A program made the translations under genes and the position numbers. The notes beneath the pieces were generated by a model. It saw nothing but the letters and a program-made list of their open reading frames with translations, ran no database searches and was not told where the DNA came from. This document shows positions 17,216 through 47,591 of a stretch of DNA of 64,000 nucleotides, in pieces (the stretch's first letter is position 1; each line of letters opens with the position of its first letter). This DNA comes from an uncultured Candidatus Saccharibacteria bacterium (GTDB lineage Bacteria > Patescibacteriota > Saccharimonadia > CAILAD01 > BJGX01): NCBI GenBank assembly GCA_964552475.1, contig CAZKFZ010000006.1, positions 27 to 64,026 on the forward strand, written 5' to 3'.

Positions 17216-17788
17216 TTAATTGAGTCGCTTAATTATGGATAATAGCTCTGGTAACTGAGGTGTCTGTTTGTTAAGAAAATGACCGTAACCGCTAAGACGT
17301 ATTTTCTCACCTCCAATCTGGTCTGCAAGTTCTATACTCTTAATAGGTTTTACAAGTTTGTCGTCATCTGAGTAGATATTGAATATTTTCTGTGCTCGCA
17401 TTGCTACTTTTTCTATATTCAATATCGGTGGAAAAAATTTTTCTGCATCTCTTCTACCTGGCTGCAAAAAACCCGAAACCAAAATAAGAGCCTTTGCTTG
17501 TTCGGGTTCAGGCCCTTTATATTTAGCTAAATACCTTAGCAGTATATTAGTTCCTAATGAGTGCCCTATAAGGATAGGGTTGTCCCCTAATGTGCCAATA
17601 GCTTCTGTGGCAGTTTCTACCCAACTTTCAATATCTGGGATAGTCGGCGCTGGCATTTGAGGGGCAATAAAACAGTAGCCCATACGTTAGGCTTGTTGAG
17701 ATAACCAACCCATCCAGCCGTAGTTTGGGTGATCGGCCCAGCCGTGTATTAGAACTATTCTATTACTCTTTTTATTCATCTGAGACAT
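17216..17788 (-). pseudogene. YdeN/RBBP9-like small alpha/beta serine hydrolase interrupted by an in-frame TAA
   Basis: An upstream 33-codon ORF (MSQMNKKSNRIVLIHGWADHPNYGWMGWLSQQA) is in the same frame as the tracked ORF. A TAA at 17687-17689 separates them. The HGW oxyanion-hole motif lies upstream of the stop; GHSLG, Asp and His lie downstream. Confidence 0.5.
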
Positions 17789-17867: not shown

Positions 17868-19820
17868 ATGAAGTATCTAAGATTAAATAAATACATCAAA
17901 GATATTGAGCCACAGACTATTATTGTGGATATTTTTGATACTTTGCTGCTAAGAAGATGGCAACCAGAGCAATGGCGATTTTATTGTATTGCAAAACTAT
18001 TCTCAAAAGAATTTAAAAAAATAAACTTAAATGCCACCGCATACTATCTATACAGACAACGTATTTACTTTAGCAAGGTATTGCGCATACAAAACCATTT
18101 AGACGGCTACGACAATGAAGCTACTCACCAAGCAATTATTAACGCAATAATACTAGATTGCGCGCGGCGACAACGTAAATCACTAAACGCTAAATCTCGC
18201 AATTCTCTATATAAAAAACTACTAAATATAGAATTGAACTTTGAGAAAGATCAGTTGATATTGAATAAAAAACTTTATAAGTTGCTTGTTAATCAAAAGA
18301 GGTCCGGTAAAAAGATATACTTTGTAAGTGATATGTATTTTGAACAAAATGATATCACAAAGTTACTAAGTAGTTTTAAAATAAAGTTTATTTCCGGAGG
18401 TGTAAGCTCGGCAGACAAATTACTTGGTAAATCTAGTGGTCGGTCTTTTGTGGTGCTAGCAAATGAGTACCCCGCTATAAAGCTAAACCTATCACTATAC
18501 ATTGGCGATAATTATCACGCAGACGTATTGCGACCAAAGCAATTTGGTTTGCAATCTGTTTGGCTTTACTTACCATTGCACCGCTTAAAGCTTTTTTTTG
18601 GAAAGGCAGTGTATAAAGTTGCCTTAACTAGTTTGTCTACGAAAGAAAAATATCTACAAAACAAACTACAAAAGAATCAGCTAAGTAAGTTATTTTCAAA
18701 AAAATCTATGAATACCAGAAATGAAGCAAAATATTTAGGCTGGATTTTTGGACCGGCATTAATATATTACTTGCATCGTTTGGGCACTCAGAGTCAAACA
18801 GCTAACAAAAAAATAATCTTTGTCACTAGCGAGAGCCTGATACTTGAAAGTCTATACAAGCAGTTAGGTTCTGGCAAAACAAAAAAACTGCCATATCTCA
18901 ACAGAACCACACTAATAAAGTCTTACGCCCACCTATTATCAAAAAAAGGCTTACAGCTAACCGAAATAGTGCCATTAGTAAAAAAAATTCTTAGGCGAAA
19001 AGACACTACCAACGCTTTGCTTACCTTAGGTATAATTTCAAAATCCAATAAACATCATCATTTGCTTGGTAAATCTATATTAAGTAAAAAATCTTTGAAC
19101 AAAATAGACATATCCAAAGCACAAGAAGATTGGCGTAACCAATATTCATCGGTAATAAAAAGCTGGAAATCTCTTGGCTTAAATAAGCAGCCAAATATAA
19201 TGCTGGCAGATGTTGGCTGGAATGATACCGTCCAAATTTTACTCTCTGAGATATTGATTGATAATGCTATAAGTACCTCAAAAATGAGCGGCTTATACTT
19301 AGGCCGAACTGGCGTGAACATATTTGATCCTCAAATAGTGACAAGCTCTCAGGGCGTAGTATTTAATTCATTAAAAGGTAGAAAAGAAAAATATCTTTAC
19401 CAACCAGAGGTATGGGAAAGCTTTTTAAATCAAGACAATATTAAAACTGAAACCCAATCAGATATTATGATTGGGTTGAGCCAAGCTATTGAATATTACA
19501 ATAAAAGCCAACTCACAGCTGAAGATTTTTGGAGACTTAACAGGCAAACAATTTTTAAAACCTTTAGAAAGCCTACGCACCGAATGATCGAAGTAATGTC
19601 TTCTTTGCAATTCGATTACGGAACTGCAGAAGAACCTATTTGTCCGCTAGTAAATATTTCTAGCACTAAATTACAAACTTACAAGTGGCTACTTTTTGAT
19701 AGGAAAAAGTTTAAATCATTCTATTTTCATCAAGGCTGGAAATGGGGTGCAGCTACTTACTACCGCTTTCGTATGCCTTACCGTTTGTGGCGGTTTATCA
19801 ACAAGAAACCTAGCTACTAA
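17868..19820 (+). CDS. large K/N-rich protein with N-terminal HAD-superfamily phosphatase-like domain plus ~400-aa unknown C-terminal region
   Basis: HAD motif I DIFDTL (DxDxT), motif II FVSD and motif III K...GDNYHAD are present. Extremely AT-rich coding sequence. Confidence 0.5.
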   Translation: MKYLRLNKYIKDIEPQTIIVDIFDTLLLRRWQPEQWRFYCIAKLFSKEFKKINLNATAYYLYRQRIYFSKVLRIQNHLDGYDNEATHQAIINAIILDCARRQRKSLNAKSRNSLYKKLLNIELNFEKDQLILNKKLYKLLVNQKRSGKKIYFVSDMYFEQNDITKLLSSFKIKFISGGVSSADKLLGKSSGRSFVVLANEYPAIKLNLSLYIGDNYHADVLRPKQFGLQSVWLYLPLHRLKLFFGKAVYKVALTSLSTKEKYLQNKLQKNQLSKLFSKKSMNTRNEAKYLGWIFGPALIYYLHRLGTQSQTANKKIIFVTSESLILESLYKQLGSGKTKKLPYLNRTTLIKSYAHLLSKKGLQLTEIVPLVKKILRRKDTTNALLTLGIISKSNKHHHLLGKSILSKKSLNKIDISKAQEDWRNQYSSVIKSWKSLGLNKQPNIMLADVGWNDTVQILLSEILIDNAISTSKMSGLYLGRTGVNIFDPQIVTSSQGVVFNSLKGRKEKYLYQPEVWESFLNQDNIKTETQSDIMIGLSQAIEYYNKSQLTAEDFWRLNRQTIFKTFRKPTHRMIEVMSSLQFDYGTAEEPICPLVNISSTKLQTYKWLLFDRKKFKSFYFHQGWKWGAATYYRFRMPYRLWRFINKKPSY

Positions 19821-19827
19821 TACTTTC

Positions 19828-20709
19828 TCATAAATTTTCTTTATATGTGTAACCCAACAAATTCATAAGATCATTAATAATTGGTGACTGCAAAACTTCT
19901 TGTTTTTGAGATTTACTTAAACTGACTTTTTTAAATCTTTTTACCACACCCTCTTTATAAAATCTGGGGTGGATGAAGAAATCTTCTCCCAAACCTTTAT
20001 TCATCTTTTTAAATATTTTAGAATCGAAGTTCTTACCTTCGTAAGCACCGGCATTACCGCCTATAGCATGCAAAGGACGTTTTGGTGGCAAACTGATTTT
20101 TAGTTTGCCTTCAGCACCTAAAAAGTCTAATACATTTTGGAGTGTAGATTTAGTATCTTCGCTAAAATCTTCGCTCCTTATGACTATAAAAGGTATCTGA
20201 CGCGTGTTTACACTACGCAGAGCGTCATAGTAGGTATCGCGCCAAATATTCGCAAGTTGCCAAATCTCCATTTTGTCGTTTTCAAACCTGGACCTACAAC
20301 TTTCTACAAAAGCAATTGGGTGTTTTACAGTAATTATTGCAAATACTTTAGCACCTCTTGGTCTTTGGTTGAGTGCTGTATTGAGCCAACTAACATACTT
20401 TGTACCGTCTACAACAATTGGCTTATTAGTTTTTTTTGCTAGCTCGCCATGTAGTTTTATTGGGTCTAGGCTAAAAGATTTTTTAACAATGTCTTTGTCG
20501 ATAACCTTACATTCGCGACTAGCAAGTTTGCACTCCATACAATCAGCGGATTGACCGTGTAAGTGGTATTTTTCAAAATATCCTTTAAGTCTGCAGACTT
20601 CTCCGGCATACATAAGTTGATTTTGCAAATCTAAATACCTACCGAGAATTGTAGACCCACTGTATGGCGTACCTAATATAAATACACTTTTATTTAGTAG
20701 TTTTTTCAT
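19828..20709 (-). CDS. sulfotransferase-family protein
   Basis: GTPYSGST PAPS 5'-phosphosulfate-binding loop and an IRSED region resembling the 3'-phosphate motif. AT-rich. Convergent with the HAD-like gene. Confidence 0.5.
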   Translation of the reverse strand: MKKLLNKSVFILGTPYSGSTILGRYLDLQNQLMYAGEVCRLKGYFEKYHLHGQSADCMECKLASRECKVIDKDIVKKSFSLDPIKLHGELAKKTNKPIVVDGTKYVSWLNTALNQRPRGAKVFAIITVKHPIAFVESCRSRFENDKMEIWQLANIWRDTYYDALRSVNTRQIPFIVIRSEDFSEDTKSTLQNVLDFLGAEGKLKISLPPKRPLHAIGGNAGAYEGKNFDSKIFKKMNKGLGEDFFIHPRFYKEGVVKRFKKVSLSKSQKQEVLQSPIINDLMNLLGYTYKENL

Positions 20710-20772
20710 ATCTACTAAGTGTAGTTGTAATTAGTGCCTTATTGCAACAGTACAAAACCAATAGCAACTTAT

Positions 20773-23532
20773 CTACTGAGTAATTTCTTGTACCCTAACA
20801 TTTGCTAGATGCACTCTTCTGGCTTCGCTATCTACACCTACCTCTGTTTGCAAAACTTGGTTTGGTATAGTTTTTTGTAATAGCAGTACGATTTCACCAT
20901 TAGGCCGACGGGCGTTTTGTAAAAACTGATACATAATTGTTTGCACCACCGGATCGCTACATATATTTTCAATTAAATGTCTATATTGCTCGTCTAGTAG
21001 TAGTCCGTTAGGAGTTGATATTGTAACTAAACCATCCTGGTCTGCGTCGAACCGTATAACTATTTCTCTTAGCGTACTTGGGAAGTAATAGTCGTGCATT
21101 GCCTCTGAAACGGCTAGCTTTAGTAGGTCTTCACGTACCGAGTTGATCGGGAACCCATCACTAATATCGCTATAGTCAAGAGATATATCTACTGCATCAT
21201 TTTGACTACTAGTCTCGATTGGTGGTGGCAGTACTACTACAGAACCTTCTGAGTCAGTGTTTCTGTCAATAAATATCTTTCTTTTTTCACTAAGATAGTC
21301 AGGATGTATATGCGAGGGGTCGTGGCTGGCGAGCTGTTTTGCAAGCTTTCTGGTAGCCGGAACAGACATCCAGAGCGGTACCCTTGATCTAATAGGGTTA
21401 CCCATTCTATCTCGACTTTGTACCGCTAAAGAATCTTTAACATAATTAGGCATCTCTGCTTCTCTGTCTTCGGCGAAGGCAATCGGGCCTATTCTATAAA
21501 TATCGGTATCTATATATCTAGAAGCCAACTCTTCTGGGTTACCGGTCTGATCATGTTCGTCTAAAACTTTTTCGGTTCTTAATTTTTGTGATGGCATTTC
21601 AATAGAATCAAATACAAATTCACCAGTATCTAATAGTCTGTCGAAAGAATCTAAGGTTTCGGTTATGGGTATGGTCATTAAAAAACTTTCTGGTTTTGAT
21701 TCTGTTACAAACTCTGGCTTACGTTTTACTAACCAAGTAACAGAGTGGTGTCCTTGAAAAGTAGTTTTTTCTAAAACTTGTAGTGAATCATATTCACATT
21801 CTTCAGAAGCATGTATATAGGCATTTTGGGTCCTTAACGCTTCTTGGAGTCTTAAATATTTCTCACTTTCTTCACTTATAATCTCTGCATTGGCCCTAGC
21901 GCATACTGTATCTAGAAAATCTTGTTCAAAACCAGCAGTAAATACTACGTGGTCTACTATTATATATTCGGTATGTTCATAATCTACTTCCTCGCCATTT
22001 GAGTTAATAAACACTCCCTCTACACCTTTTTTGGGTAGCCCAATATTTACTTTTATTTTACCGTCTGGTGTATATTGCAAACCTAGTGCGTGTCCTGCAT
22101 ATGGATTTATTCTGTGTGGATAGTTGGGGTCGTCAAATCTTGGAAAATCAGCGCCCAGCTGAGAGTAGCGGGGTCTGATTGTACTCACATACTTTTGACC
22201 GTTCTGTGCTTTCTGGCCCACCCAAGATACTTCAATCTGTGTGTCTTGTCGGGTTGTTAATCCTGTAGAACCCTCGTAACCAAGAAGCTTACCTACAGTT
22301 GTTGCACCAGAATCACCAGCACCAATTACAGCCACTGAGTGATAGCTATCAAATGGCCTTTCTCCTTTTTGAACACTTTTTATTATGTGCCTCTGAAATT
22401 GTCCCAAACTTTGTACTCTAGCATCTTGGCCTAACTGTGCCTTCTCAGCTTCTCGAGCAATGACTTTTTGAGATTCTATTTGGGCTTCTTTGGTGCCCTC
22501 AAGTTCAAATTTATCTTTGCCTAGACCGGCAGCAACAATCACTCGATCTGTCTGTAATTCATAGATTTCTCCAGTCTCAGTGTCTATCATTTCAACAATT
22601 GTAGAGCCTAGCCCACCTCCCGAGTGAGGATTTCTTCTTACACTCACCACCTCGGCACATGTCATAGTGTGTCCGGCAAGAACTTGATTTATTCGAGTGG
22701 CAGTAGCAATATTGTCTTGAAAATCATAGGTAACATTATCTAGATCGGGTTCTTGAACATCACCGAGCCCCAAACTATTCTTATTTCCACTTCCGCCAGC
22801 AACATTATCTTCTGGATTGGCGCTCTCCGGACCAGTCTTGGTATTTAAACCATGTATGTCCATGTCGGGCTGAAACTGCCCTCCAATTCTATGACTTGCC
22901 TCAATAGTAAGTGCTGGATGAGCAGCATCTTCGTGTAGACGTTCGGAATTATAAACTTGTGCTTGTGGACCAGAGCCTATTACAATTTCAGCAAAGTACC
23001 TTCTACCAGATTTAATTTGTTCTTTTATCTCGTCACTCTCTCTTTGAACTAATCTATCAATAGCCAAATTTACTAATGCTTGTCCTCTATCAGATTTAGC
23101 TATCCCAGATAAATAAGCTGTTAGGTCTCTATGGGTTTGTCCTTCTAAGTATGATCGGTCGGCGGCAAGTATTGGGTCGGCGAGCATTTTTTGCCTAAGA
23201 ACATTTCTAGCTTCTGTACGAGCACCTGTCGCCTGAGCCTCAGTCCTGCCTCTTTTAATTTCTCTTCTTACTTTGTCGCGTCTAACGTTTTCTGCAACTT
23301 CTTCCATTAACTCATAGCTACTGGCTACCGTTGCGGCCAAAGCTCGTAGTTCTGGTTCACGAAGTCTTTGGGCTTTTACTCGTCTTGCTTCTATCGCCCT
23401 AAATCTCTCTGTAGAAGTAAGTACTCTATCAGCATCCGAACCTTTCTCGTGTTTGGTTAAATCTATAAAAAGTTGTGGTTTGGGTCTTGGCTCTGAGCTG
23501 CCGTGGTGCTGGACTATTGTTGGTTCGTTCAT
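20773..23532 (-). CDS. 919-aa protein with a two-dinucleotide-binding flavoprotein-like core (FAD and NAD(P) Rossmann motifs) flanked by long unique extensions
   Basis: IVIGSGPQA (GxGxxA) and VAVIGAGDSG (GxGxxG) plus a later VFTAGFEQD element. An Arg-rich N-terminal ~180 aa and a ~350-aa C-terminal region have no recognised motif. Confidence 0.4.
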   Translation of the reverse strand: MNEPTIVQHHGSSEPRPKPQLFIDLTKHEKGSDADRVLTSTERFRAIEARRVKAQRLREPELRALAATVASSYELMEEVAENVRRDKVRREIKRGRTEAQATGARTEARNVLRQKMLADPILAADRSYLEGQTHRDLTAYLSGIAKSDRGQALVNLAIDRLVQRESDEIKEQIKSGRRYFAEIVIGSGPQAQVYNSERLHEDAAHPALTIEASHRIGGQFQPDMDIHGLNTKTGPESANPEDNVAGGSGNKNSLGLGDVQEPDLDNVTYDFQDNIATATRINQVLAGHTMTCAEVVSVRRNPHSGGGLGSTIVEMIDTETGEIYELQTDRVIVAAGLGKDKFELEGTKEAQIESQKVIAREAEKAQLGQDARVQSLGQFQRHIIKSVQKGERPFDSYHSVAVIGAGDSGATTVGKLLGYEGSTGLTTRQDTQIEVSWVGQKAQNGQKYVSTIRPRYSQLGADFPRFDDPNYPHRINPYAGHALGLQYTPDGKIKVNIGLPKKGVEGVFINSNGEEVDYEHTEYIIVDHVVFTAGFEQDFLDTVCARANAEIISEESEKYLRLQEALRTQNAYIHASEECEYDSLQVLEKTTFQGHHSVTWLVKRKPEFVTESKPESFLMTIPITETLDSFDRLLDTGEFVFDSIEMPSQKLRTEKVLDEHDQTGNPEELASRYIDTDIYRIGPIAFAEDREAEMPNYVKDSLAVQSRDRMGNPIRSRVPLWMSVPATRKLAKQLASHDPSHIHPDYLSEKRKIFIDRNTDSEGSVVVLPPPIETSSQNDAVDISLDYSDISDGFPINSVREDLLKLAVSEAMHDYYFPSTLREIVIRFDADQDGLVTISTPNGLLLDEQYRHLIENICSDPVVQTIMYQFLQNARRPNGEIVLLLQKTIPNQVLQTEVGVDSEARRVHLANVRVQEITQ

Positions 23533-33270: not shown

Positions 33271-33777
33271 CTACGTAAGCTCATTTACCATCTGCTCAAG
33301 TACTACTTGTGTTGCAGCGTCATTGCGAATAACCTTTACATCAAGCTTCTGCGCCTCCTCTATCAAATACTCTTGTATCATTCGCACTGCTGTAAAGTTC
33401 TGTTCTGATTCATCTGTTTCTTTTCTTTTTTCGAAAAACTGTCTTTTGTGTATGGCCTCATCAAGACAAACCAACAAAAATACTTTTGCTTTATTGCGAT
33501 ACGGCGCTGGGTCTATAAACACTGCCTCAAGAATCACTTTATCATGCTCAACAAGCACTCTATCTACATCTTTGCGCATATAGTCTCTTACGTAGAGAAG
33601 TCCTTTCACAGTATTCTCTTTTGTAAGTGAACCATACTTTCGCCAAACAAACTTTGTGGCTGGGTACGGCCTAATATAATCACCTTCTATAAATGGAATC
33701 CCAGTTTTATATTGTAGTGCTTTGCTAATAGTAGTTTTCCCTGCGTCGGGAACACCGTATATCAAAACTTGGCTCAT
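33271..33777 (-). CDS. P-loop NTPase / small kinase-like protein
   Basis: Walker A GVPDAGKTT at the N-terminus. 168 aa. Its start overlaps the stop of the upstream surface-protein gene by 4 nt. Confidence 0.5.
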   Translation of the reverse strand: MSQVLIYGVPDAGKTTISKALQYKTGIPFIEGDYIRPYPATKFVWRKYGSLTKENTVKGLLYVRDYMRKDVDRVLVEHDKVILEAVFIDPAPYRNKAKVFLLVCLDEAIHKRQFFEKRKETDESEQNFTAVRMIQEYLIEEAQKLDVKVIRNDAATQVVLEQMVNELT

Positions 33778-36700
33778 ATCCTACTATTTCGTTTATTGGC
33801 ATAGAGACTTTGATAACCAGCTATGACTAGCCCAGCAATACCTGCGCTAACTAAAGCAATAGAAAAAATAACAAATATAGTTTTGTGTATATTTATACCG
33901 GTTTTTGCTAGCAACGATTCACCAACTGCTAACCCGATGGGGTCAGTAATTTTGCCGTCGGTAACGCCATCGGTGTCTAAGTTGCTGCCGTCAGTTATTT
34001 GATAGCTGGCTTTGGTGGCACTTTGGCCACCAACACTTACGCCGATGATGTTAGCACCATCTAAATTGGTGTAGGTATTACTATTAGGGTTGTACTTACG
34101 GGCGACAAAGCCTTGTGTAGCTACACCATAATAGTATTGAGTAACTGTAGTAGTTATACCGGGAGTGCCACAACTGAGGCTAAAGTTCATTAGCCCAGCT
34201 GGATAGTTGTAGTTAAGGTCTGGGGTGGTATTTACTGATTCTGCGGCTGTTGAAGCGGCGGTAATAGAGCACTCACTGCCTACCTCGAGAGTGGCATACT
34301 GCCCGGTGACAGGGTCAACAAAACTCGCTACATTGGCTTGCTCAGAGTCCGGGGTGTTGTCGCCGTTGGCATCGCCATTGTTGGGGGCGGCGGATTCGAT
34401 TTCGCTAGGTACTCCATCGTTGTCGTCTACTGGCGCGTTTGGGTCGTAAGTGTGTGTTACCAGACTATTGTTACTGAGAGTACTGAATGGATCTGTTCCG
34501 GTACCAAAAGCCTGACCAAATGTTTGAGCTTCTGGGTCTAGCTCATAGAACACCATAGCGCGGTTAAGAGTTGGTTGAGTTTCATCTATAGACTCTATGT
34601 TCACAACTATCTTAAAACTTACTGTCTGCCCGTTTGCGATGCTATCAAATCCAAAAACACAGGCTATAAAATGGCCAACGGTGCCCGGAAATGGCCAATC
34701 TTCGTGCGGGTCCTCGCAGCTCACATTGTCACCTATTACAGCGCTATACTCAACACCGTGAGGCAGAACATCAAAAATATACGTGCCACCAACTGCTGTG
34801 TCGGGCCCATGGTTGGTAAGACCAATAGTATAGGTAGCTTGTTGACCATTTTTGATTGTACCTGGCGCATCAAGAGTCTTAGTGATCTCAATGTCTACAA
34901 CTGGTGTAGGTACAAATGTATCATCGTCGGTGCCGCAATTATTGCTTTCGTCGATATCAATAATAGTTTGGCCCCCTAACCGGATAGGAGGGTCTATACA
35001 TACTTGACTTGTATCTAAGTTTCCAAAATTTTGCACATCACCACTCAATATCAAGGTAAGTGTTTCGCCAGACTTCAATAGACCAGACCAGGTATTACCA
35101 TCAAAGCTACCAGGCGATGTCGCGGTGGTGTTGTCGGAGTCTACTGAATACATATATGGATAAAGTACATTATTTGCACCCTGGAATGTAAAATGGTCAA
35201 CGTCACCCGGCCCGTTATTAGTGACGGTAAAGGTGTATTGATTCGGTTCTCCAAATACAGCGCTCGTAGTGCCATCGTCGCTTGTTACGGCCAAGTCTGC
35301 TTGCGGTTCATATTTACCAAATTCACTAGTTGGGCCAAAACCCGTAGGACTATCTGGATCAATCAGTGTGGCTGTCGCTGCAAGGTGTGTGTGACCTGTA
35401 CCGCTAACAGTAGTGGTAAAGTTTTGGCTACCGGTGCCGGTACTGGTGGCTTCGTCGTAGCCAAGGAAGGTTTCCCCCTCACCATAACCTGTCGGGTCAG
35501 CCTCTGTATTACTAAAGAATTCTATACGATAGTCGCCAGCGGGCACATCTAAGCTAAACCCTATATCGGTATTACCAGCGTTTTCGGTGGCCTGAGTAAT
35601 AATTGGGAAATTGAGCAAATCATTTGGGCCTGAATCGCCATCACCGGAATCATTTGCGGTTGGATAATTGTCGCCACCAGAACCGCCGCCTAGTTTTATA
35701 CCTGTGTAATTATTACTAAAAATAGAGTTGCCTAGAAATGGACTGTGTCCACTACCATAAAAAATCATACCAATACCATTAGCACCATTGAAGGCAATAA
35801 TATTACCTTCGCCCTGGTTTGTACCGCCAATCAGTGGTGCGGCTAAGGACGTCAAATGCACACCGTACTCTCCATTCCCAAGATCTATGGTATTTGTAAG
35901 ATCTGTACCTATGTGATTACCCTGTATTCTTGCACCAACTCCATCACCCATCCAAATCCCACTCGCTGTGTTACCACCTATTACATTATCTTTTATTAAT
36001 ACTCCGCTACAATCACCGCTACAACCTATTGATAGCCCGTGACCAGCATTTGGTATCTTAGCCGTGCCTGTCGAGTTAGTTCCAATTAGATTATTCTCGA
36101 TAGTTGCGACATTAAATGAAAGTGCCACCCCATAATTACTATTGCCAGAAATAACATTGCCATCATTTATGCCTGGCCCCCCAATCATTAGATTAATAAA
36201 CCCACCATAGGCCCCAATACCGTTATTTGTATTTGGTAGAGCTGCCGTACCGGCATGGTTTGTGCCAATCTTGTTACCCTTAATTATTGTATTTGTGTGC
36301 GTACCATACCAAAAGCTAATACCCCTACCTATTACTCCAGATATCAAATTGTTAGCAATAGTGGTGCCTGTGCTAGGGGCTACATTTATACCGCCGTAAC
36401 TATCTATTCCTAATGATGTTGTACCAGCAATATCTGTGCCAACAATGTTATTTTTAAACATTGTGTTATTACCGTTAATCCAAAGGCCATATTTACCAAA
36501 TAGATTCATGTCGGTAGAATTATTTCCACCAACCGTTGAGTCATTTCCAGATACGCTTAGACCGATGCGTGTTACCGTGCTAACAGCTGTTGTACCATCT
36601 GCGCTCGTTCCAAAAAAATTACATCTTACTATATTGGTGTCGCTTTGGGTCTCCAAATATGCATTGCCAGTGCCAAACACCAGCCCATTGATCTCTGAGC

Positions 36701-37070
36701 CAGCAGCATTTGCGCTAGTAGTAATCAATGGGCTATTTTCTATAACAACTTTTAGGGTTGAGCTAGTGCCGTTACAAACAGACCCAGATTGAGACATCCC
36801 ATTTATTTTGAGTTGATCGGTAATAGTAATCCCGCCTGTTGTGAGTGCAATAGTATGCGGGCCGGCGCCGGAAATATTAAAGTCTATTTGGTCTGCTCCA
36901 GCATTATTGTTGGCATCGGTAATAGCTTGCCTTAAACTACCGGCACCAGCATCGTCGGTAGTAGTAACGGTATAAGTTGCAGCCTTGGCGGCGTGCGGCA
37001 GTGTTAAAAATCCAAAAGCTAGAGCAATGACCGGTAGTACTAAGAGGAGTTTGATCTTTGTTCCTGTCAT
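33774..37070 (-). CDS. 1098-aa secreted right-handed beta-helix surface protein with C-terminal LAxTG-type sortase signal
   Basis: Signal peptide. Dozens of G/N/T-rich parallel-beta-helix-like repeats (NNLISG, IKGNKIGTN...). C-terminal LAKTG plus hydrophobic segment plus KRNSRI tail. Confidence 0.6.
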   Translation of the reverse strand: MTGTKIKLLLVLPVIALAFGFLTLPHAAKAATYTVTTTDDAGAGSLRQAITDANNNAGADQIDFNISGAGPHTIALTTGGITITDQLKINGMSQSGSVCNGTSSTLKVVIENSPLITTSANAAGSEINGLVFGTGNAYLETQSDTNIVRCNFFGTSADGTTAVSTVTRIGLSVSGNDSTVGGNNSTDMNLFGKYGLWINGNNTMFKNNIVGTDIAGTTSLGIDSYGGINVAPSTGTTIANNLISGVIGRGISFWYGTHTNTIIKGNKIGTNHAGTAALPNTNNGIGAYGGFINLMIGGPGINDGNVISGNSNYGVALSFNVATIENNLIGTNSTGTAKIPNAGHGLSIGCSGDCSGVLIKDNVIGGNTASGIWMGDGVGARIQGNHIGTDLTNTIDLGNGEYGVHLTSLAAPLIGGTNQGEGNIIAFNGANGIGMIFYGSGHSPFLGNSIFSNNYTGIKLGGGSGGDNYPTANDSGDGDSGPNDLLNFPIITQATENAGNTDIGFSLDVPAGDYRIEFFSNTEADPTGYGEGETFLGYDEATSTGTGSQNFTTTVSGTGHTHLAATATLIDPDSPTGFGPTSEFGKYEPQADLAVTSDDGTTSAVFGEPNQYTFTVTNNGPGDVDHFTFQGANNVLYPYMYSVDSDNTTATSPGSFDGNTWSGLLKSGETLTLILSGDVQNFGNLDTSQVCIDPPIRLGGQTIIDIDESNNCGTDDDTFVPTPVVDIEITKTLDAPGTIKNGQQATYTIGLTNHGPDTAVGGTYIFDVLPHGVEYSAVIGDNVSCEDPHEDWPFPGTVGHFIACVFGFDSIANGQTVSFKIVVNIESIDETQPTLNRAMVFYELDPEAQTFGQAFGTGTDPFSTLSNNSLVTHTYDPNAPVDDNDGVPSEIESAAPNNGDANGDNTPDSEQANVASFVDPVTGQYATLEVGSECSITAASTAAESVNTTPDLNYNYPAGLMNFSLSCGTPGITTTVTQYYYGVATQGFVARKYNPNSNTYTNLDGANIIGVSVGGQSATKASYQITDGSNLDTDGVTDGKITDPIGLAVGESLLAKTGINIHKTIFVIFSIALVSAGIAGLVIAGYQSLYANKRNSRI

Positions 37071-39025
37071 ACTCTACCCCGTTGTTTCTTTTTGGAATAA
37101 ACTCTGTGTCCTGTAAGGCCAGCGACACCTAATACTCCTGCGGCAATGAGAGTTAGTGCGATGAATAATCGTTGGTTGGTGTGCTGTGGCTGCCCGGTGT
37201 TGGCTAGTGAGCTGGAGTTGCCAGAGGGGCTAGGAGTAGGTGTTGGGGTTGGTGGTACTGGTACTGGTGCGGCAATGGCTTGTACTGGAGCTGAGAATTC
37301 TGAGCTGTGGCCATAACCATCACTAGATACATCGGTCATGGTAGTTACGGCAGTAACATAGTAGTCGGCAGGCACAGAACCGGGGAGATTAAGAGTAGCC
37401 GATTGGCCAGTGACAGAGCCTGGCACAATATCTGAGCCAAGATAAATAGCCCCTTCACGATCACTTGTTGAATTGGCATAAAAATCTACACTGTAGCCAG
37501 TAGCCCCTACCTCGGCTGGATTAATGTCGAGGTCGTAATTGACAGTTACTTGGCCACTACCCTTTGTGGCAGAGTTGATGACAGGGAAGTTCATAAACAT
37601 ATTGGGGCCAACATCGGGGTCGCCAGCATCATTGGGATAAGGCTCAGGGGTGTCGCAGACAAAATTACTGTCTGTGTCGTTACATAAGCGTATGCCACTC
37701 TCAGTGTTTTGTTCTATGTCGTTACCGATGATGGTATTGTTTAATGGTGCATCACCAAAGCCAGCAATATTTATTGCAAACACACCGCTGCCAGTACTAC
37801 CGGCAATCTTATTGCCTTCACCCACGCCAGTACCACCAATAAGGATATCGTGACTATTATTGGCCATTGCGACACCAGAGGTATTACTTAAACCTGGGGT
37901 AACATCACCATTCTTATCAGTGCCAAAGTAGTTACCCTGAATAGTATTACTAGAGGATTCGAACATAAGTATGCCACCCCATATAGCAGTATTGTTTGTT
38001 ATGACATTACGGGCTGCTACTGATGTGCCTCCAATAATATTGTTGCTACCACCCGATAAGCAAATACCGCCTATGCCATCATTTGAAAGCGGCGCAAGCC
38101 CAGTAGCATCTAACCCAATATAGTTACCTTGAATAGTATTATTGGACGCCCCTTCCCCTTGTATACCGCAATTACCATTACCCGATATAACATTCATTGC
38201 ACCCGTTGCTGTACCCCCGACAGTAACATTCCCTGAGCTCATAAATATACCATCATCGACATTACCTATATCGGCAATACCATTAGCTGCTACACCGATA
38301 TAATTACCTTGTATTACAGTACCCATACTAGTGGACATACCAAACCCCGAATTTCCCGAAACCAAGTTCCGTTCGGCAGGGTTTGTACTACCCACATGTA
38401 CCCCTGTACCCCCGGTTGAATTTGATATACCTCTTTTATTACCCAAATCTACTAAACCGGTGGTATCTGTCCCTAAGTAATTACCAAAGACATTGATGTT
38501 GTTGTTGACACCATTACTAATACGTATGCCATTATTATCAAACCGGTTTATAACTAAACCTCTAATAGTCGAGTTGCTAGTATTTATATTAAGACCATCA
38601 CACCCATTACCGGCACTTCCCCCATCAATCTCAATCGTTAGTGTGCCATTAAAAGGGTTAGGTGATATGGCAGTATTGACAGCTGAGCCGGGTTGAGAGT
38701 AACCGTCTATAGTCACAGACTGAGTAATGTCATCAAAACAAGAAGCTGGTTGAATGGTGTGTACCCCAGTGCCAGATATACCAAAGTCTATGGTATCGCC
38801 ACCAGTGCCAGCATTCACTTCTTGAATGGCCGCCCTAAGAGTACAAGTATCTAGGGCTGTATGGCAGGCCAGGTCGCCAGGATTGTCGTCGGCTTCATCG
38901 CCAATAGAATCGACAGTGTAAGTAGTAGCGGCTTTGGCAGAGTGTGGTTGTAATACAAAAGCAATGGCTAATGCAATAGCACACATTAGTAGTGTTAGCG
39001 AAATTGTTTTATTATGTATCCTCAT
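37067..39025 (-). CDS. 652-aa secreted beta-helix surface protein with Pro/Thr linker and C-terminal LANTG sorting signal
   Basis: Signal peptide, beta-helix-type repeats, and a PVPVPPTPTPTPSPS linker. LANTG plus TM plus KKKQRGRV tail. Overlaps the downstream gene by 4 nt. Confidence 0.6.
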   Translation of the reverse strand: MRIHNKTISLTLLMCAIALAIAFVLQPHSAKAATTYTVDSIGDEADDNPGDLACHTALDTCTLRAAIQEVNAGTGGDTIDFGISGTGVHTIQPASCFDDITQSVTIDGYSQPGSAVNTAISPNPFNGTLTIEIDGGSAGNGCDGLNINTSNSTIRGLVINRFDNNGIRISNGVNNNINVFGNYLGTDTTGLVDLGNKRGISNSTGGTGVHVGSTNPAERNLVSGNSGFGMSTSMGTVIQGNYIGVAANGIADIGNVDDGIFMSSGNVTVGGTATGAMNVISGNGNCGIQGEGASNNTIQGNYIGLDATGLAPLSNDGIGGICLSGGSNNIIGGTSVAARNVITNNTAIWGGILMFESSSNTIQGNYFGTDKNGDVTPGLSNTSGVAMANNSHDILIGGTGVGEGNKIAGSTGSGVFAINIAGFGDAPLNNTIIGNDIEQNTESGIRLCNDTDSNFVCDTPEPYPNDAGDPDVGPNMFMNFPVINSATKGSGQVTVNYDLDINPAEVGATGYSVDFYANSTSDREGAIYLGSDIVPGSVTGQSATLNLPGSVPADYYVTAVTTMTDVSSDGYGHSSEFSAPVQAIAAPVPVPPTPTPTPSPSGNSSSLANTGQPQHTNQRLFIALTLIAAGVLGVAGLTGHRVYSKKKQRGRV

Positions 39026-44296: not shown

Positions 44297-46243
44297 CTAG
44301 GCTTTTTTAGCAGCTTTTCTTAATCGTCTTCTTATTTCTTCAGAATTGAGAGCATAGACCGAGCCAAGTATTAGTAAGCCCGCCAAGCCACCGCTCGCTA
44401 GATTACCTCCAGCGTTAGCCAAAGATCCGCCGCCAGGTGTAGTAGGTATTGTAACTGTTGCAGAACACCCCCCAGTTGTTTGTCCAGAGCCCGTTACGGT
44501 GGCTGTATAAGTTGTCGTGGCGGTAGGCGCTACTTCTACCTCACCCCCACCTACTGGCGTAACTGTACCTATGTCTTGGTTTATAGACATACTTGTGGCA
44601 TTTGTAGATGTCCATGTAAGAAATGAGCTTTCACCACTAGTAATAGAGGCGGGGTCGGCTGTAAGTGTACAGCTAGGACTTGCCGGAGTATCATTGACAG
44701 TAATAGTCGTCGTACTAGAGCCCTCCCCTCCAGGGCCCGTCACCTTACATGTATACACTCGCGTAGCCGCCGGCGTCACCGTAACACTACCGCTGGCTAC
44801 TGGATTGACTGACACGTCAGTGCCTGCCGTTACAGTATCTATAGTAACATCTGTGGCATCTGTGGTTGTCCAGCCTAGGGCTGAACTACCGCCTGCACCA
44901 ATGGTGCTTGGGGTGGCTGTCAGCGTACAAGTAGGTGCCGGGGTATCGGTAACCGTAACAGTAACGGCATTACAGTCAGCTGTTCCACCAGGGCCCTCTA
45001 CAGTGCCAGAATAGGTAGTGGTAACGACAGGACTCACCGATGTACTACCACTAGCTACTGGATTAACTTCGCCTATGCCGTTGTCGAGTGTAAGTGTTGT
45101 GCCATCAGTGGTTGTCCAGCCAATCGACGAGCTCCCACCACTCGCAATAGTACTCGGTGTAGCCGTCAGCGTACAGGTAGGTGCGGTGATAAAACTAGTT
45201 TGATCAGTACTCCAAAATGGGCGGTAGCTATAACTTGATAGAGCACCACTATTGAGCACGCCCGGGCCACCATCGGCAGCGGGCACATTGGCCACCAACT
45301 GTATATTGCTACCATCGGCGTCCATGGTAACAAGCTCGGTCAAATTATTACTGGGGTTGAAGCGCACCGCAACTATTTGTGTTCCATCTGGAGAATAATA
45401 GCCACCTATATAGTCATTGTTGTCGTTGGTAATGGCTGTCGCAACACCACCAGGCGTTCTAGTGGTTGTCATTAATTGATCGCCTTGGCCTGATACCTTA
45501 CTATTACAATTAAATTGATCGTTACTTGTATAGAGTAATGTTTTTCCATCATTAGGGTGAATATCGTTGAGTCGGCAAACTAAGTCTTGTGTTGAAGCAT
45601 CTGTAGTAACATCTAGCGCCGTAACTTGGTTGGGCGTAGAAGCGTCAACGCGTCTTATATTATTTTGGTTGGCAATATACACATGTGCCCCACCGGGGCC
45701 CCATACAGGGTTTTGGCTATTAGTGCCGTTAATTTGATTGGTTAAGGTAATATTGTTGCTACCATCGGCATTCATCACATGTACTTCGCGTTCGCCACCA
45801 TTATTGGTAGTGTAGACTGCAAATGCTATTTTGGAGCCATCATTGTATACCGCTGGTTCTTGCATGCTTCTAGTACCGCTACCAGAAGGGCAGGTAATTT
45901 GAGTACCAGCTGGCGTAAGGGCATTGGTAACGCTAAACATACCCACGTTGCTTAGAGTACCAGAAGTACATTGGTTGGGATAATATATATCTGTTCCGGC
46001 CGGGTTATACACCGCCGCCCATTTGTTCGAACTGACAGTACTTGGTATATTGGTGTCTTTTATATCAGTGCCGTCGGCAAATATGGAGTAGTGAGTGCTT
46101 GGTGCGGCCCAAAGAATACGGCCATTTACGCCAGGAGTTTGAGCGCGTGCAACGCCAAAAGGTGTAAGCAAAAGCGTTACACCCACAATTGTAGAGATAC
46201 TTAATCTAAATAATTTCTTGATATGATTCTGTATTTTTTTCAC
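44297..46243 (-). CDS. secreted surface protein: TolB-like beta-propeller repeats plus three ~70-aa Ig-like repeats, C-terminal TM anchor with variant sorting-like motif
   Basis: Signal peptide. DGS/NADGSN repeats. Three repeats sharing TCTLTATPSTI.GGSS.LGWTTTD. C-terminal SLANAGG...LAGLLILGSVYAL plus RRRLRKAAKKA. Confidence 0.5.
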   Translation of the reverse strand: MKKIQNHIKKLFRLSISTIVGVTLLLTPFGVARAQTPGVNGRILWAAPSTHYSIFADGTDIKDTNIPSTVSSNKWAAVYNPAGTDIYYPNQCTSGTLSNVGMFSVTNALTPAGTQITCPSGSGTRSMQEPAVYNDGSKIAFAVYTTNNGGEREVHVMNADGSNNITLTNQINGTNSQNPVWGPGGAHVYIANQNNIRRVDASTPNQVTALDVTTDASTQDLVCRLNDIHPNDGKTLLYTSNDQFNCNSKVSGQGDQLMTTTRTPGGVATAITNDNNDYIGGYYSPDGTQIVAVRFNPSNNLTELVTMDADGSNIQLVANVPAADGGPGVLNSGALSSYSYRPFWSTDQTSFITAPTCTLTATPSTIASGGSSSIGWTTTDGTTLTLDNGIGEVNPVASGSTSVSPVVTTTYSGTVEGPGGTADCNAVTVTVTDTPAPTCTLTATPSTIGAGGSSALGWTTTDATDVTIDTVTAGTDVSVNPVASGSVTVTPAATRVYTCKVTGPGGEGSSTTTITVNDTPASPSCTLTADPASITSGESSFLTWTSTNATSMSINQDIGTVTPVGGGEVEVAPTATTTYTATVTGSGQTTGGCSATVTIPTTPGGGSLANAGGNLASGGLAGLLILGSVYALNSEEIRRRLRKAAKKA

Positions 46244-46361: not shown

Positions 46362-47591
46362 ATGGACAAATATCGGTTATTCAATGACGACATGGCTCCT
46401 CTAAGCCACAACTTATCTTCGGGTGTTTCTAGATTTATAAAACCAATAGACGAAGATAGTGAGCAGATTGAGGGTTATTTTGTATCGCAAAGTGACACCA
46501 ATCAAGTACAGATGTCGCCACAAGCTATGGAAAAAATAGCCTTATATTTTGCTGAAGAACAAGATAATATCGACTATAGCCCTAGCGAAGCATCAGCCAG
46601 AACAATTGCGCTTCAGGCCAGATTACGTGAGTCGCGCAAATCAAATCGTCACTCTGCGGTGCCTAGCTACTTCTCCCCTCCATCGGCCACTACCACTCAC
46701 CACAATAGTGGCAAAAAAAGAACCAACACCGCCAAGGCTGATTTTTTGCGCGCCAAACGTACCCATACTGCCATGCAAGACGACTACCAGCTTGCAGCTA
46801 GCTCGGCAGAGGTGGACTTAATGGTGAGTATTCCTGGGCAAGTCTATACCCCCGGTAAGTCTGGCCACGAGCAACACCTGCAGCGGCGGGCTCAAGCTAG
46901 CTATCAGCGTACGCACGGCCATAAACGCCATGCCTATGTGCCCGATACTGACGAGCGAAACCTCATTAATAAACACATCAAAAACCCTCACGCCAAAACC
47001 ATCCTTACCGCCGTGGCCACACTGACCGGGCTGTACTTAATTTTTGGCCCAATGCTACCTGGCCTGCTCAAGGTATCATCATCTGTGGTAGGAACTGGCA
47101 ATAAAAATCATGCACAAGCTGACCAGTCTGAGTCTAAGGCCATTGCCCAAAGTGGCCTCACCCCACCGGCCGAGGCCCCCAAAGAGTTGGCGGTCAATCA
47201 GGTAGGTTGGCTCAACATACCAGTTATTGGCGTTGGCGCACCCATAGTAGAGGGTAAAGACGACAATGCTATGACTTATGGCATTTGGCACCGCCCCGGC
47301 ACCGGCACCCCTCTTACAGATAGCAACACGGTTTTGGCTGGTCATAGATATCAATATGTAAACGGTCCGCGCACCTTTTATTCGCTAGACAAAGTAAAGG
47401 TGGGTGATCCTGTAGAGGTAAAATGGGGTGAGCAGACTTTTCGTTACAAGGTAGTGCGCACCTTTGTGGTAGAAAAAGACAAGATGTATATTGAAGCTCC
47501 CACTACCGTGCCACTTTTAACTATCTATACCTGTACTCCGCTCTGGACGTCTACCAATCGCTTAGTAGTGCAAGCTACACCAATTACATAA
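46362..47591 (+). CDS. sortase (transpeptidase; class E-like by substrate motif) with ~210-aa cytoplasmic low-complexity N-terminal region
   Basis: C-terminal catalytic domain has His in VLAGHR, Cys in LLTIYTCTP (TLxTC) and Arg in TNRLVV. A TM helix (ILTAVATLTGLYLIFGPMLPGL) precedes it. Confidence 0.7.
   Translation: MDKYRLFNDDMAPLSHNLSSGVSRFIKPIDEDSEQIEGYFVSQSDTNQVQMSPQAMEKIALYFAEEQDNIDYSPSEASARTIALQARLRESRKSNRHSAVPSYFSPPSATTTHHNSGKKRTNTAKADFLRAKRTHTAMQDDYQLAASSAEVDLMVSIPGQVYTPGKSGHEQHLQRRAQASYQRTHGHKRHAYVPDTDERNLINKHIKNPHAKTILTAVATLTGLYLIFGPMLPGLLKVSSSVVGTGNKNHAQADQSESKAIAQSGLTPPAEAPKELAVNQVGWLNIPVIGVGAPIVEGKDDNAMTYGIWHRPGTGTPLTDSNTVLAGHRYQYVNGPRTFYSLDKVKVGDPVEVKWGEQTFRYKVVRTFVVEKDKMYIEAPTTVPLLTIYTCTPLWTSTNRLVVQATPIT

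Follow-up and report, generated by a model that had tools for sequence, protein, structure and literature searches.

Within a 64,000-nucleotide stretch of DNA from an uncultured Candidatus Saccharibacteria bacterium (GenBank assembly GCA_964552475.1, contig CAZKFZ010000006.1, positions 27 to 64,026; the whole stretch is called the window below), we examined three contiguous genes, encoding proteins of 650 amino acids (aa) (17868-19820, plus strand), 293 aa (19828-20709, minus strand), and 919 aa (20773-23532, minus strand). Sequence profiles and a structural model place the 650-aa protein as a predicted new, divergent member of a known enzyme family, the bipartite PRP-gPRT ribofuranosyltransferases, in which a HAD phosphatase domain (PRP) precedes a glycan phosphoribosyltransferase domain (gPRT), and the 293-aa protein is, by profile alignment, a predicted divergent sulfotransferase-fold protein resembling the sulfotransferase domain of CurM (CurM ST). 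Genes of this 293-aa family almost always adjoin a gPRT gene, i.e., in Saccharibacteria, in operons of Actinomycetota, and in an Rml/Wzm/Wzt cluster. We favor, at a probability of about 0.65, the reading that a ribofuranosyltransferase and its sulfotransferase partner act on an envelope glycan and have been kept vertically, with the 919-aa gene independent of them. New here are the conserved pairing with sulfotransferases of a Tyr-loop family and the presence of this module in Saccharibacteria.

The 650-aa protein and its family

All three open reading frames (ORFs) lie exactly where a first-pass annotation of this DNA had placed them, and translation confirmed every motif quoted there (DIFDT, VSDMY, GDNYHAD, GTPYSGST, GSGPQA, and GAGDSG). 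The first ORF had been described as a HAD phosphatase fused to an unknown domain of ~400 aa. Its N-terminus is indeed a genuine HAD phosphatase domain (17910-18572, plus strand), evident by a match to TIGR02252 with an E value of 1.3e-5 over residues 17-232, by alignment to 7SHG and Bcs3 CrpP (see below), and by its motifs DIFDT (residues 21-25, 17928-17942), VSDMY (18324-18338), K188 (18429-18431), and GDNYHAD (18504-18524). The remainder is not unknown; Foldseek and the profile match to 7SHG revealed a known fold, that of a glycan phosphoribosyltransferase dependent on phosphoribosyl pyrophosphate (PRPP). This gPRT or CriT-like domain, delimited by conservation and profile alignment, spans about residues 283-650 (18714-19820, plus strand) and includes a loop 1 of T320-S321-E322 (18825-18833) and a DVGWNDTVQ loop (19209-19235).

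Single-sequence searches of Pfam and NCBIfam with the 650-aa protein returned weak, sub-threshold HAD matches alone; a near-match to DUF5772 was disregarded, as it spans a 39-residue stretch. A word-indexed search found 17 full-length relatives with 42-91% identity, of which the named ones belong to Saccharibacteria; its distant members bear HAD or RgpF domains, with one gPRT fused to RgpF. Scanning one genome per GTDB species recovered 380 relatives, the best 80 of which supplied the loci for the gPRT locus comparisons below. When the family profile (A2) was compared with the Protein Data Bank (PDB), it matched 7SHG, a "Ribofuranosyl transferase" from Thermobacillus composti, with an E value of 7.7e-50 over positions 2-506, and Bcs3 (8A0C) with an E value of 3e-22, positions 19-334 alone being aligned. 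An AlphaFold2 (AF2) model built on the relatives, with a predicted local distance difference test score (pLDDT) of 88.8 and a predicted template modeling score (pTM) of 0.88, was compared by Foldseek; 7SHG aligned over the full length (644 columns, E value of 1e-17) and Bcs3 with an E value of 1e-13, and ordinary HAD phosphatases aligned to the N-terminus only.

The residues conserved across the family fall on both domains. In the HAD domain, D155, K188, G213, D214, and D219 are invariant, with D21, F23, D24, and T25 nearly so. Motif I, DIFDT, is identical in the 650-aa protein, 7SHG, and Bcs3, with Phe at the position of the second Asp of classical HADs; also common to the family, 7SHG, and Bcs3 CrpP are (V/A)SDxYL, the motif III Lys, and GDNxxxD. 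In the gPRT domain, the invariant residues are E322, D448, G450, Q456, G475, Y477, and D583. The family segment "fvtsEs" pairs with FLSREG of 7SHG and FISRDG of Bcs3 (S678-R679-D680), and DVGWNDTIQ of the family pairs with DVGWKGTIQ of 7SHG. In Bcs3, D680 of loop 1 and E818 of loop 3 form a split version of the phosphoribosyltransferase "DD" motif that holds the ribose of PRPP (PMC10299916). A split acidic pair is present here as well, with E322 aligned to Bcs3 D680 and to the Glu of FLSREG, and D448 at the head of the DVGW loop; D448 is the presumed counterpart of Bcs3 E818, because the alignment to Bcs3 ends at position 334.

In this family, the gPRT or CriT domain uses PRPP to attach ribofuranose-5-phosphate to a glycan acceptor, and the HAD domain (PRP or CrpP) then strips the 5-phosphate; both steps, the PRPP-dependent transfer and the dephosphorylation, have been demonstrated for Bcs3, Cj1432, and Klebsiella ORF5/ORF7 (PMC10299916, PMC12096443, PMC11127046, PMC11231755).

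A second, paralogous gPRT-PRP clade was also observed in Saccharibacteria (locus L007, 4888-8034, and loci L024-L032). Its members are 23-27% identical to the 650-aa protein and have no adjacent sulfotransferase gene; in L007, the paralog lies directly downstream of the gene for PRPP synthetase, the maker of the presumed donor.

The sulfotransferase-fold protein and its linkage to the gPRT gene

The 293-aa gene (19828-20709, minus strand) is convergent with the gPRT gene across a gap of 7 bp. The first-pass annotation had called its product sulfotransferase-like, which Pfam and profile A3, built from eleven relatives, bear out; Sulfotransfer_3 passed narrowly (29.2 bits against a cut-off of 27), with several homologs lacking any Pfam match, and the profile matched CurM ST (4GBM) with an E value of 1e-11 and the OLS/CurM-type 4GOX with an E value of 1e-9. 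Conserved in the family and aligned to CurM ST are the GxxGST loop and a C-terminal segment. In the window, the loop resembling the 5'-phosphosulfate-binding site reads GTPYSGST (20650-20673), and the segment resembling the 3'-phosphate-binding site reads KHPIAFVES (20299-20325); here (K/R)129-x-P131-x5-S137 aligns with the 3'-phosphate motif RHPYxVIES of CurM ST. Invariant G36-E37 (E37 at 20599-20601) aligns with PPE of CurM ST, whose Glu comes just after the loop, and K104 and R157 are likewise invariant. The claim of a loop resembling one that binds 3'-phosphoadenosine-5'-phosphosulfate (PAPS) therefore stands in part; the loop is present and its GxxGST aligns with that of CurM ST, but its canonical Arg/Lys is Tyr. 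Because Tyr replaces the loop Arg, we name the protein sulfotransferase-fold or sulfotransferase-like rather than a canonical member. Extra features of the family are three invariant Cys residues and the motifs WRDTYYD and HAIGGN. The Cys residues (C57, C60, and C67; 20509-20541, minus strand) form a CxxCx6C arrangement that is specific to this family, is absent from CurM ST, and may be a metal or disulfide site.

The first-pass annotation had proposed looking for co-occurrence of the three genes in other genomes; the trio failed this examination, and the pair of HAD-gPRT and sulfotransferase genes passed it strongly. Loci with orthologs of 46% and 42% identity share the order PolA, RpoD, DnaG, small ORFs, Ser-hydrolase, gPRT-PRP (plus), and sulfotransferase (minus), and this shared order at 42-46% identity rules out a recent insertion. 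The sulfotransferase gene is adjacent in all seven close-ortholog loci with enough flank. In three Actinomycetota-type loci (L022, L023, and L036), in which the gPRT is 24-25% identical, it is co-directional and directly downstream. The reverse search, starting from the sulfotransferase, gave 16 metagenome loci, 11 of which have an adjacent gPRT gene; in four of the other five, the contig stops at or within ~250 bp of the sulfotransferase gene. Three of these metagenome loci display a third arrangement, co-directional and of low GC content, so that the pair occurs in three different gene arrangements in total.

The wider contexts of these relatives were also compared. The actinobacterial operon follows closely after an LCP ligase gene, comprises gPRT-PRP, sulfotransferase, a 234-aa protein, and TauE, and is convergent with a CysN-APS-kinase fusion (CysNC) and CysD, i.e., PAPS-making machinery. 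In L113, the order is TauE-RmlA-RmlC-Wzm-Wzt-gPRT-PRP-sulfotransferase-GT2, with a C-terminal glycan-binding domain in Wzt. Other distant gPRT relatives lie among DegT, methyltransferase, and GT1/2/4 genes (L008/L009) or beside PRPP synthetase. Surface-glycan loci thus harbor gPRT relatives in L008/L009, L036, and L113. The fold, the family membership, the conservation of motifs, and the gene linkage are directly supported by these comparisons.

Two further proteins were noted at these loci. Directly upstream of the sulfotransferase gene, on the same strand, most Saccharibacteria loci encode a protein of 422-444 aa (L001, 10876-12210, minus; L005, 8782-10050, minus; L015, L017, L018, and L099-L109) with a Pro/Gln-rich N-terminal half, one hydrophobic segment suggesting a membrane anchor, and a conserved C-terminal domain of ~170 aa. 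This protein may be a third component of the module; its gene is missing from the window, where the 919-aa gene holds that position. That the 422/444-aa gene is a shortened homolog of the 919-aa gene was rejected (BLASTP E value of >3), the product being a Pro-rich, membrane-anchored protein. The 234-aa protein encoded between sulfotransferase and TauE (L036, 12812-13516; L022, 3859-4560; L023, 3377-4069; all plus strand) had no Pfam match. Its N-terminus opens with LQISETGGTSIRRLL, which we take to resemble a Sulfotransfer_2 HIPKTGGTS loop in which another residue stands for the Lys, and it may be a second, degenerate sulfotransferase-like protein.

Base composition, gene neighborhood, and the 919-aa protein

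The window has a mean GC content of 40.9% and a gene content of the kind usual in Saccharibacteria. The three genes are flanked by TrmB, HolA, Fpg, CCA/poly(A) polymerase, PolA, RpoD, and DnaG on one side and by LepA, MurJ, FtsH, and TilS on the other, with surface proteins, sortase, trehalase, and enolase farther out. The first-pass annotation had described the region as far more AT-rich than its flanks and as acquired. Among 64 one-kb bins (window mean of 0.409), those at 18-20 kb are indeed the lowest (0.339-0.340), but the description was overstated; the next-lowest bins are at 0.351-0.352, and small ORFs elsewhere in the window reach 0.315-0.351. Moreover, the GC content of the 919-aa gene is 0.413, so the AT-rich block consists of two genes, not three.

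When GC content was examined by codon position, the deficit of the 650-aa and 293-aa genes was found at positions 1 and 2. First-position GC (GC1) is 0.384 and 0.439, respectively, against a window median of 0.514, and third-position GC (GC3) stays within the usual range, with values of 0.324 and 0.293 (window median of 0.344, minimum of 0.279). Both proteins contain ~11.5% Lys and are poor in Gly, Ala, Pro, Asp, and Glu. Orthologous genes in four other Saccharibacteria loci exhibit the same GC1-driven deficit with typical GC3 in each, and the low GC content is therefore a property of the protein families rather than a sign of foreign DNA. The analysis of GC by codon position thus spoke against acquisition, and the AT-richness of the pair follows from the high Lys content of the two proteins. 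Rather than forming an island, the pair is ancient and has been kept vertically within a conserved housekeeping neighborhood; the case illustrates that the GC dip of Lys-rich proteins can pass for a horizontally acquired island.

The 919-aa protein (20773-23532, minus strand) had been predicted to carry two dinucleotide-binding motifs, and it is a flavoprotein of that type, with GSGPQA (22960-22977) and GAGDSG (22306-22323) conserved, GGQFQ (22870-22884) and DHVVFTAGF (21928-21954) among its further motifs, and a fold match to SidA/DfoA. The top 26 Foldseek matches of its AF2 model (pLDDT of 69, pTM of 0.71) are the N-hydroxylases SidA and DfoA, with an E value of 4e-10, a template modeling (TM) score of ~0.5, and 12-14% identity; AIF and NADH oxidases rank after them. 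The protein reaches no Pfam cut-off, the threshold of Lys_Orn_oxgnase (PF13434) included, and its sole match is Pyr_redox_2 with an E value of 0.022; PF13434 matched three of seven relatives weakly (best E value of 2.3e-5). Our best guess is an FAD- and NAD(P)H-dependent enzyme resembling class B monooxygenases, i.e., SidA-like.

A word search with this protein found a handful of relatives, and an exhaustive profile search with its family found 865 representative clusters (50% identity), 322 of them at E values of ≤1e-30, with many full-length matches in proteins of 800-1300 aa and some of up to 2700 aa. No Pfam domain or name was found in the family clusters, and the annotations of ten clusters are blank or "hypothetical protein." The core common to 151 members covers residues about 121-480; fewer than half of them possess the C-terminal half. 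Conserved in the family are G186/G188 (GSGPxA), G217-G218-x-F220, an LN(T/S)(K/R) loop, G404/D407 (GAGDSG), R453/R455/Y456, and D527...G534 (DHVVxATGF); the family has no conserved Cys, which argues against a disulfide reductase. Its most conserved stretch, LN(T/S)(K/R)xGPE...G..N (residues 224-252), was modeled with a pLDDT of <50 and is probably a mobile substrate or cofactor loop.

The loci of this family (L004, L010, L092, L093, and L094) have variable contexts with no biosynthetic partners. A 38% identical ortholog in L010/L011 lies in the order TilS-FtsH-MurJ-LepA-DUF3828-[gene]-HrcA-GrpE-DnaK, and the relatives in L004, L092, L093, and L094 lie elsewhere than beside LepA. As the 919-aa gene accompanies the LepA block in relatives and the pair occurs without it, the 63-bp gap at 20710-20772 joins two separate blocks, one extending from PolA through RpoD, DnaG, hydrolase, and gPRT to the sulfotransferase gene and the other from the 919-aa gene through LepA, MurJ, and FtsH to TilS. 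Comparison of L001, L005, and L010 with the window identified this junction of separately conserved syntenic blocks, an arrangement shared only with L012, a 92% relative. The 919-aa gene is independent of the gPRT/sulfotransferase module, and a lineage-specific rearrangement probably set it beside the pair. In two of the distant members (L092 and L093), a LemA gene lies divergently upstream. Four IMG/VR contigs classed as viral (L095-L098) encode proteins with 26-38% identity to the FAD/NAD(P) core only; these four weak, core-only relatives lend no support to a mobile origin.

Several other features of the window were recorded. A Ser_hydrolase-family gene (17216-17761, minus strand; Pfam Ser_hydrolase E value of 1e-10) is the divergent, conserved neighbor of the gPRT gene and is interrupted by an in-frame TAA at 17687-17689, with tblastn aligning a single frame over 17761-17219. 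The position of the stop codon is Glu in L012 and Asn or Ser in other orthologs; it could be a nonsense mutation or a sequencing error, and in the former case the gene could be a pseudogene or could re-initiate at an ATG two codons later to give a 155-aa ORF. Large probable surface proteins are encoded near the sortase gene (33774-39025, minus; 44297-46243, minus; 46362-47591, plus); the set includes a 1098-aa protein with DUF11 and beta-helix repeats, as well as 652-aa and 648-aa proteins with no Pfam matches and unusually high second-position GC (GC2). These proteins are candidate sortase substrates at the epibiont surface. A search for promoters and terminators across 17.1-23.7 kb yielded counts no better than those from shuffled sequence, and PADLOC defense models matched none of the three proteins nor the 919-aa relatives.

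Proposed function, alternatives, and comparison with known systems

We propose that the 650-aa protein would be cytoplasmic, with its C-terminal gPRT domain moving ribofuranose-5-phosphate from PRPP onto a hydroxyl of an acceptor glycan and its N-terminal HAD domain then taking off the 5-phosphate to leave a beta-ribofuranosyl residue. The 293-aa enzyme would be a dedicated partner, most likely catalyzing PAPS-dependent sulfation of the ribofuranose-containing glycan or of its immediate acceptor. Together, the pair would assemble, in this Saccharibacteria lineage, a glycopolymer of the cell envelope that carries both ribose and sulfate. For the pair, we infer the donor, the acceptor, the order of steps, and the sulfation itself, and a sulfated, ribofuranose-containing envelope glycan is our best inference for its product. 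The glycan modification foreseen by the first-pass annotation thus survives for the first two genes, with dephosphorylation and sulfation their best reading, and does not extend to the 919-aa gene.

A number of observations weigh against this proposal. The donor and acceptor of the 650-aa protein are predicted from homologs of only 18-25% identity, and in its gPRT loop 1 a Ser takes the place of Arg679, the residue of Bcs3 that contacts pyrophosphate. Location in a surface-glycan assembly locus is typical of the family, though not strictly defining; in the window, the gPRT gene instead has RpoD, DnaG, the hydrolase, the sulfotransferase gene, the 919-aa gene, and LepA as neighbors, and the surroundings of the pair contain no glycosyltransferase, flippase, or ABC exporter. 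Because the whole neighborhood is syntenic, adjacency inside Saccharibacteria alone is weak evidence for coupling, and the two genes are convergent there, not an operon. The two sulfotransferase-linked gPRT clades are not sisters in a rough neighbor-joining tree used qualitatively only. In the 293-aa family, the basic residue of the 5'-phosphosulfate loop is absent; the loop reads GT(A/P)Y16SGST, with Tyr16 in almost every member (Phe in one) at the Arg of CurM ST and TPST1. The 64-kb window and the 10 kb around the Saccharibacteria orthologs yielded no APS kinase, ATP sulfurylase, or TauE gene, so the source of PAPS in this reduced genome is putative. As for the third gene, the 919-aa model is of moderate confidence only, and no PDB entry matches the protein by sequence.

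Some of these observations could be accommodated if the 293-aa protein did not depend on PAPS and were instead a non-catalytic, acceptor-binding or scaffold partner of the gPRT, or used another donor (APS or another nucleotide-activated group). The nearly invariant Tyr16, the lack of PAPS-synthesis genes in the window and Saccharibacteria flanks, the Pfam score barely over the cut-off with several homologs unmatched, and the family-specific Cys triad absent from CurM ST would all fit this explanation. We nonetheless consider it unlikely, as (K/R)xPx5S and the CurM-ST-aligned Glu are conserved, invariant K104 and R157 could provide the missing charge, and CysNC, CysD, and TauE lie beside the pair in Actinomycetota, with TauE again in L113. 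It is very unlikely, in our estimation, that the acceptor of the pair is something other than a glycan, for example a lipid, a polyol phosphate of the teichoic-acid type, or a small metabolite. The window offers no glycosyltransferase or export genes near the pair, the closest sulfotransferase of solved structure, CurM ST, has a polyketide intermediate as its substrate, and Bcs3 CriT ribosylates ribitol, not a sugar (PMC10299916); however, all characterized family members ribosylate surface glycopolymers (PMC10299916, PMC12096443, PMC11127046, PMC11231755), and LCP, Rml, Wzm/Wzt, and GT2 genes accompany relatives of the pair.

The first-pass annotation itself had favored a horizontally acquired three-gene island encoding one pathway that dephosphorylates, sulfates, and oxidizes a small molecule or glycan. 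The GC minimum at 18-20 kb, the contiguity of the three genes in the window genome and in L012, and the shared strand of the sulfotransferase and 919-aa genes, which lie 63 bp apart, would be explained by such an island. But GC3 is typical, the dip is driven by amino-acid composition, and orthologs at 42-61% identity are equally AT-shifted and hold the same position beside DnaG and the hydrolase in the PolA-RpoD-DnaG-hydrolase neighborhood. In relatives, the 919-aa gene goes with LepA/MurJ/FtsH (it shares synteny with LepA in L010/L011 and lies elsewhere in L004); it is absent from 79 of the best 80 gPRT loci, the exception being L012, and from all 16 sulfotransferase loci. The three-gene island is largely refuted and, in our view, highly improbable. 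A bolder version of our own proposal, that the pair is an undescribed two-gene module with an obligate Tyr-loop sulfotransferase that makes a sulfated ribofuranose epitope on envelope glycans with activated sulfate drawn from the host, appears quite unlikely at present.

Saccharibacteria are epibionts of Actinomycetota; the surface glycans of the Candidate Phyla Radiation mediate an obligate epibiotic lifestyle and are essentially uncharacterized, and sulfated bacterial glycans are rare. PRPP-dependent ribofuranosyltransferases were recognized only in 2022-2023, mainly in Gram-negative pathogens, and a conserved Saccharibacteria clade would add the Candidate Phyla Radiation to the family's range. 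The near-obligate pairing predicts a sulfated, ribose-containing glycopolymer and poses the question of how a reduced genome obtains PAPS; Saccharibacteria and Actinomycetota both carry the module, but CysNC/CysD/TauE accompany the actinobacterial version only. If the bolder version given above is true, a Saccharibacteria epibiont may show a host-like sulfated glycan at the attachment interface. A literature search found nothing relevant on Saccharibacteria with sulfotransferase or PAPS genes. Separately, the 919-aa protein draws attention to a large family of flavoproteins with a SidA-like core that has neither a Pfam model nor a name.

Compared with known systems, the 650-aa protein is closest in layout to Klebsiella pneumoniae O4 ORF5 and O7 ORF7 and to 7SHG of T. 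composti, which are likewise stand-alone enzymes of ~600-650 aa in which the HAD PRP domain precedes the gPRT domain. With 7SHG-type enzymes it shares the DIFDT, SDxYL, GDNxxxD, SxE, and DVGW..TIQ motifs and a full-length fold match; it differs in its identity of 18-19%, its origin in Saccharibacteria (Patescibacteria), the Ser that replaces Arg in loop 1, its housekeeping neighborhood in place of an O-antigen or capsule locus, and its partner gene of the sulfotransferase family. Bcs3 CrpP-CriT of Haemophilus influenzae type b (8A0C/8A0M) and Cj1432 M/C of Campylobacter jejuni also place a HAD phosphatase before a PRPP-dependent ribose-5-phosphate transferase, and Bcs3 has a split acidic pair, D680/E818, like E322/D448 here. 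In both, however, these are modules inside three-enzyme polymerases with a CroT or GT4 domain and SH3b, whereas the enzyme in the window consists of the two domains alone.

The 293-aa family resembles the CurM/OLS ST domains (4GBM and 4GOX; Sulfotransfer_3) in its fold family by profile, its GxxGST loop, the Glu after the loop, the 3'-phosphate motif (R/K)HPxxxxES, and a C-terminal "ED(F/L)...LG(V)" segment. Unlike them, it has Tyr for the loop Arg, a Lys after the VD motif shifted by two residues, three conserved Cys residues, and the WRDTYYD and HAIGGN motifs, and the 293-aa protein partners a glycan ribosyltransferase rather than being part of a polyketide synthase. Finally, the 919-aa protein shares with SidA, DfoA, and PvdA/IucD (Lys_Orn_oxgnase) a two-Rossmann FAD/NADPH core and motifs of the GxGPxA, GGxF, GxGxSG, and D(x)3xATGF types, but it has double their length, with helices in an N-terminal region (about residues 40-175) and ~400 residues making up its C-terminal half; its LN(T/S)(K/R)xGPE...N loop has no counterpart in SidA-type enzymes, nor does its gene have a siderophore context.

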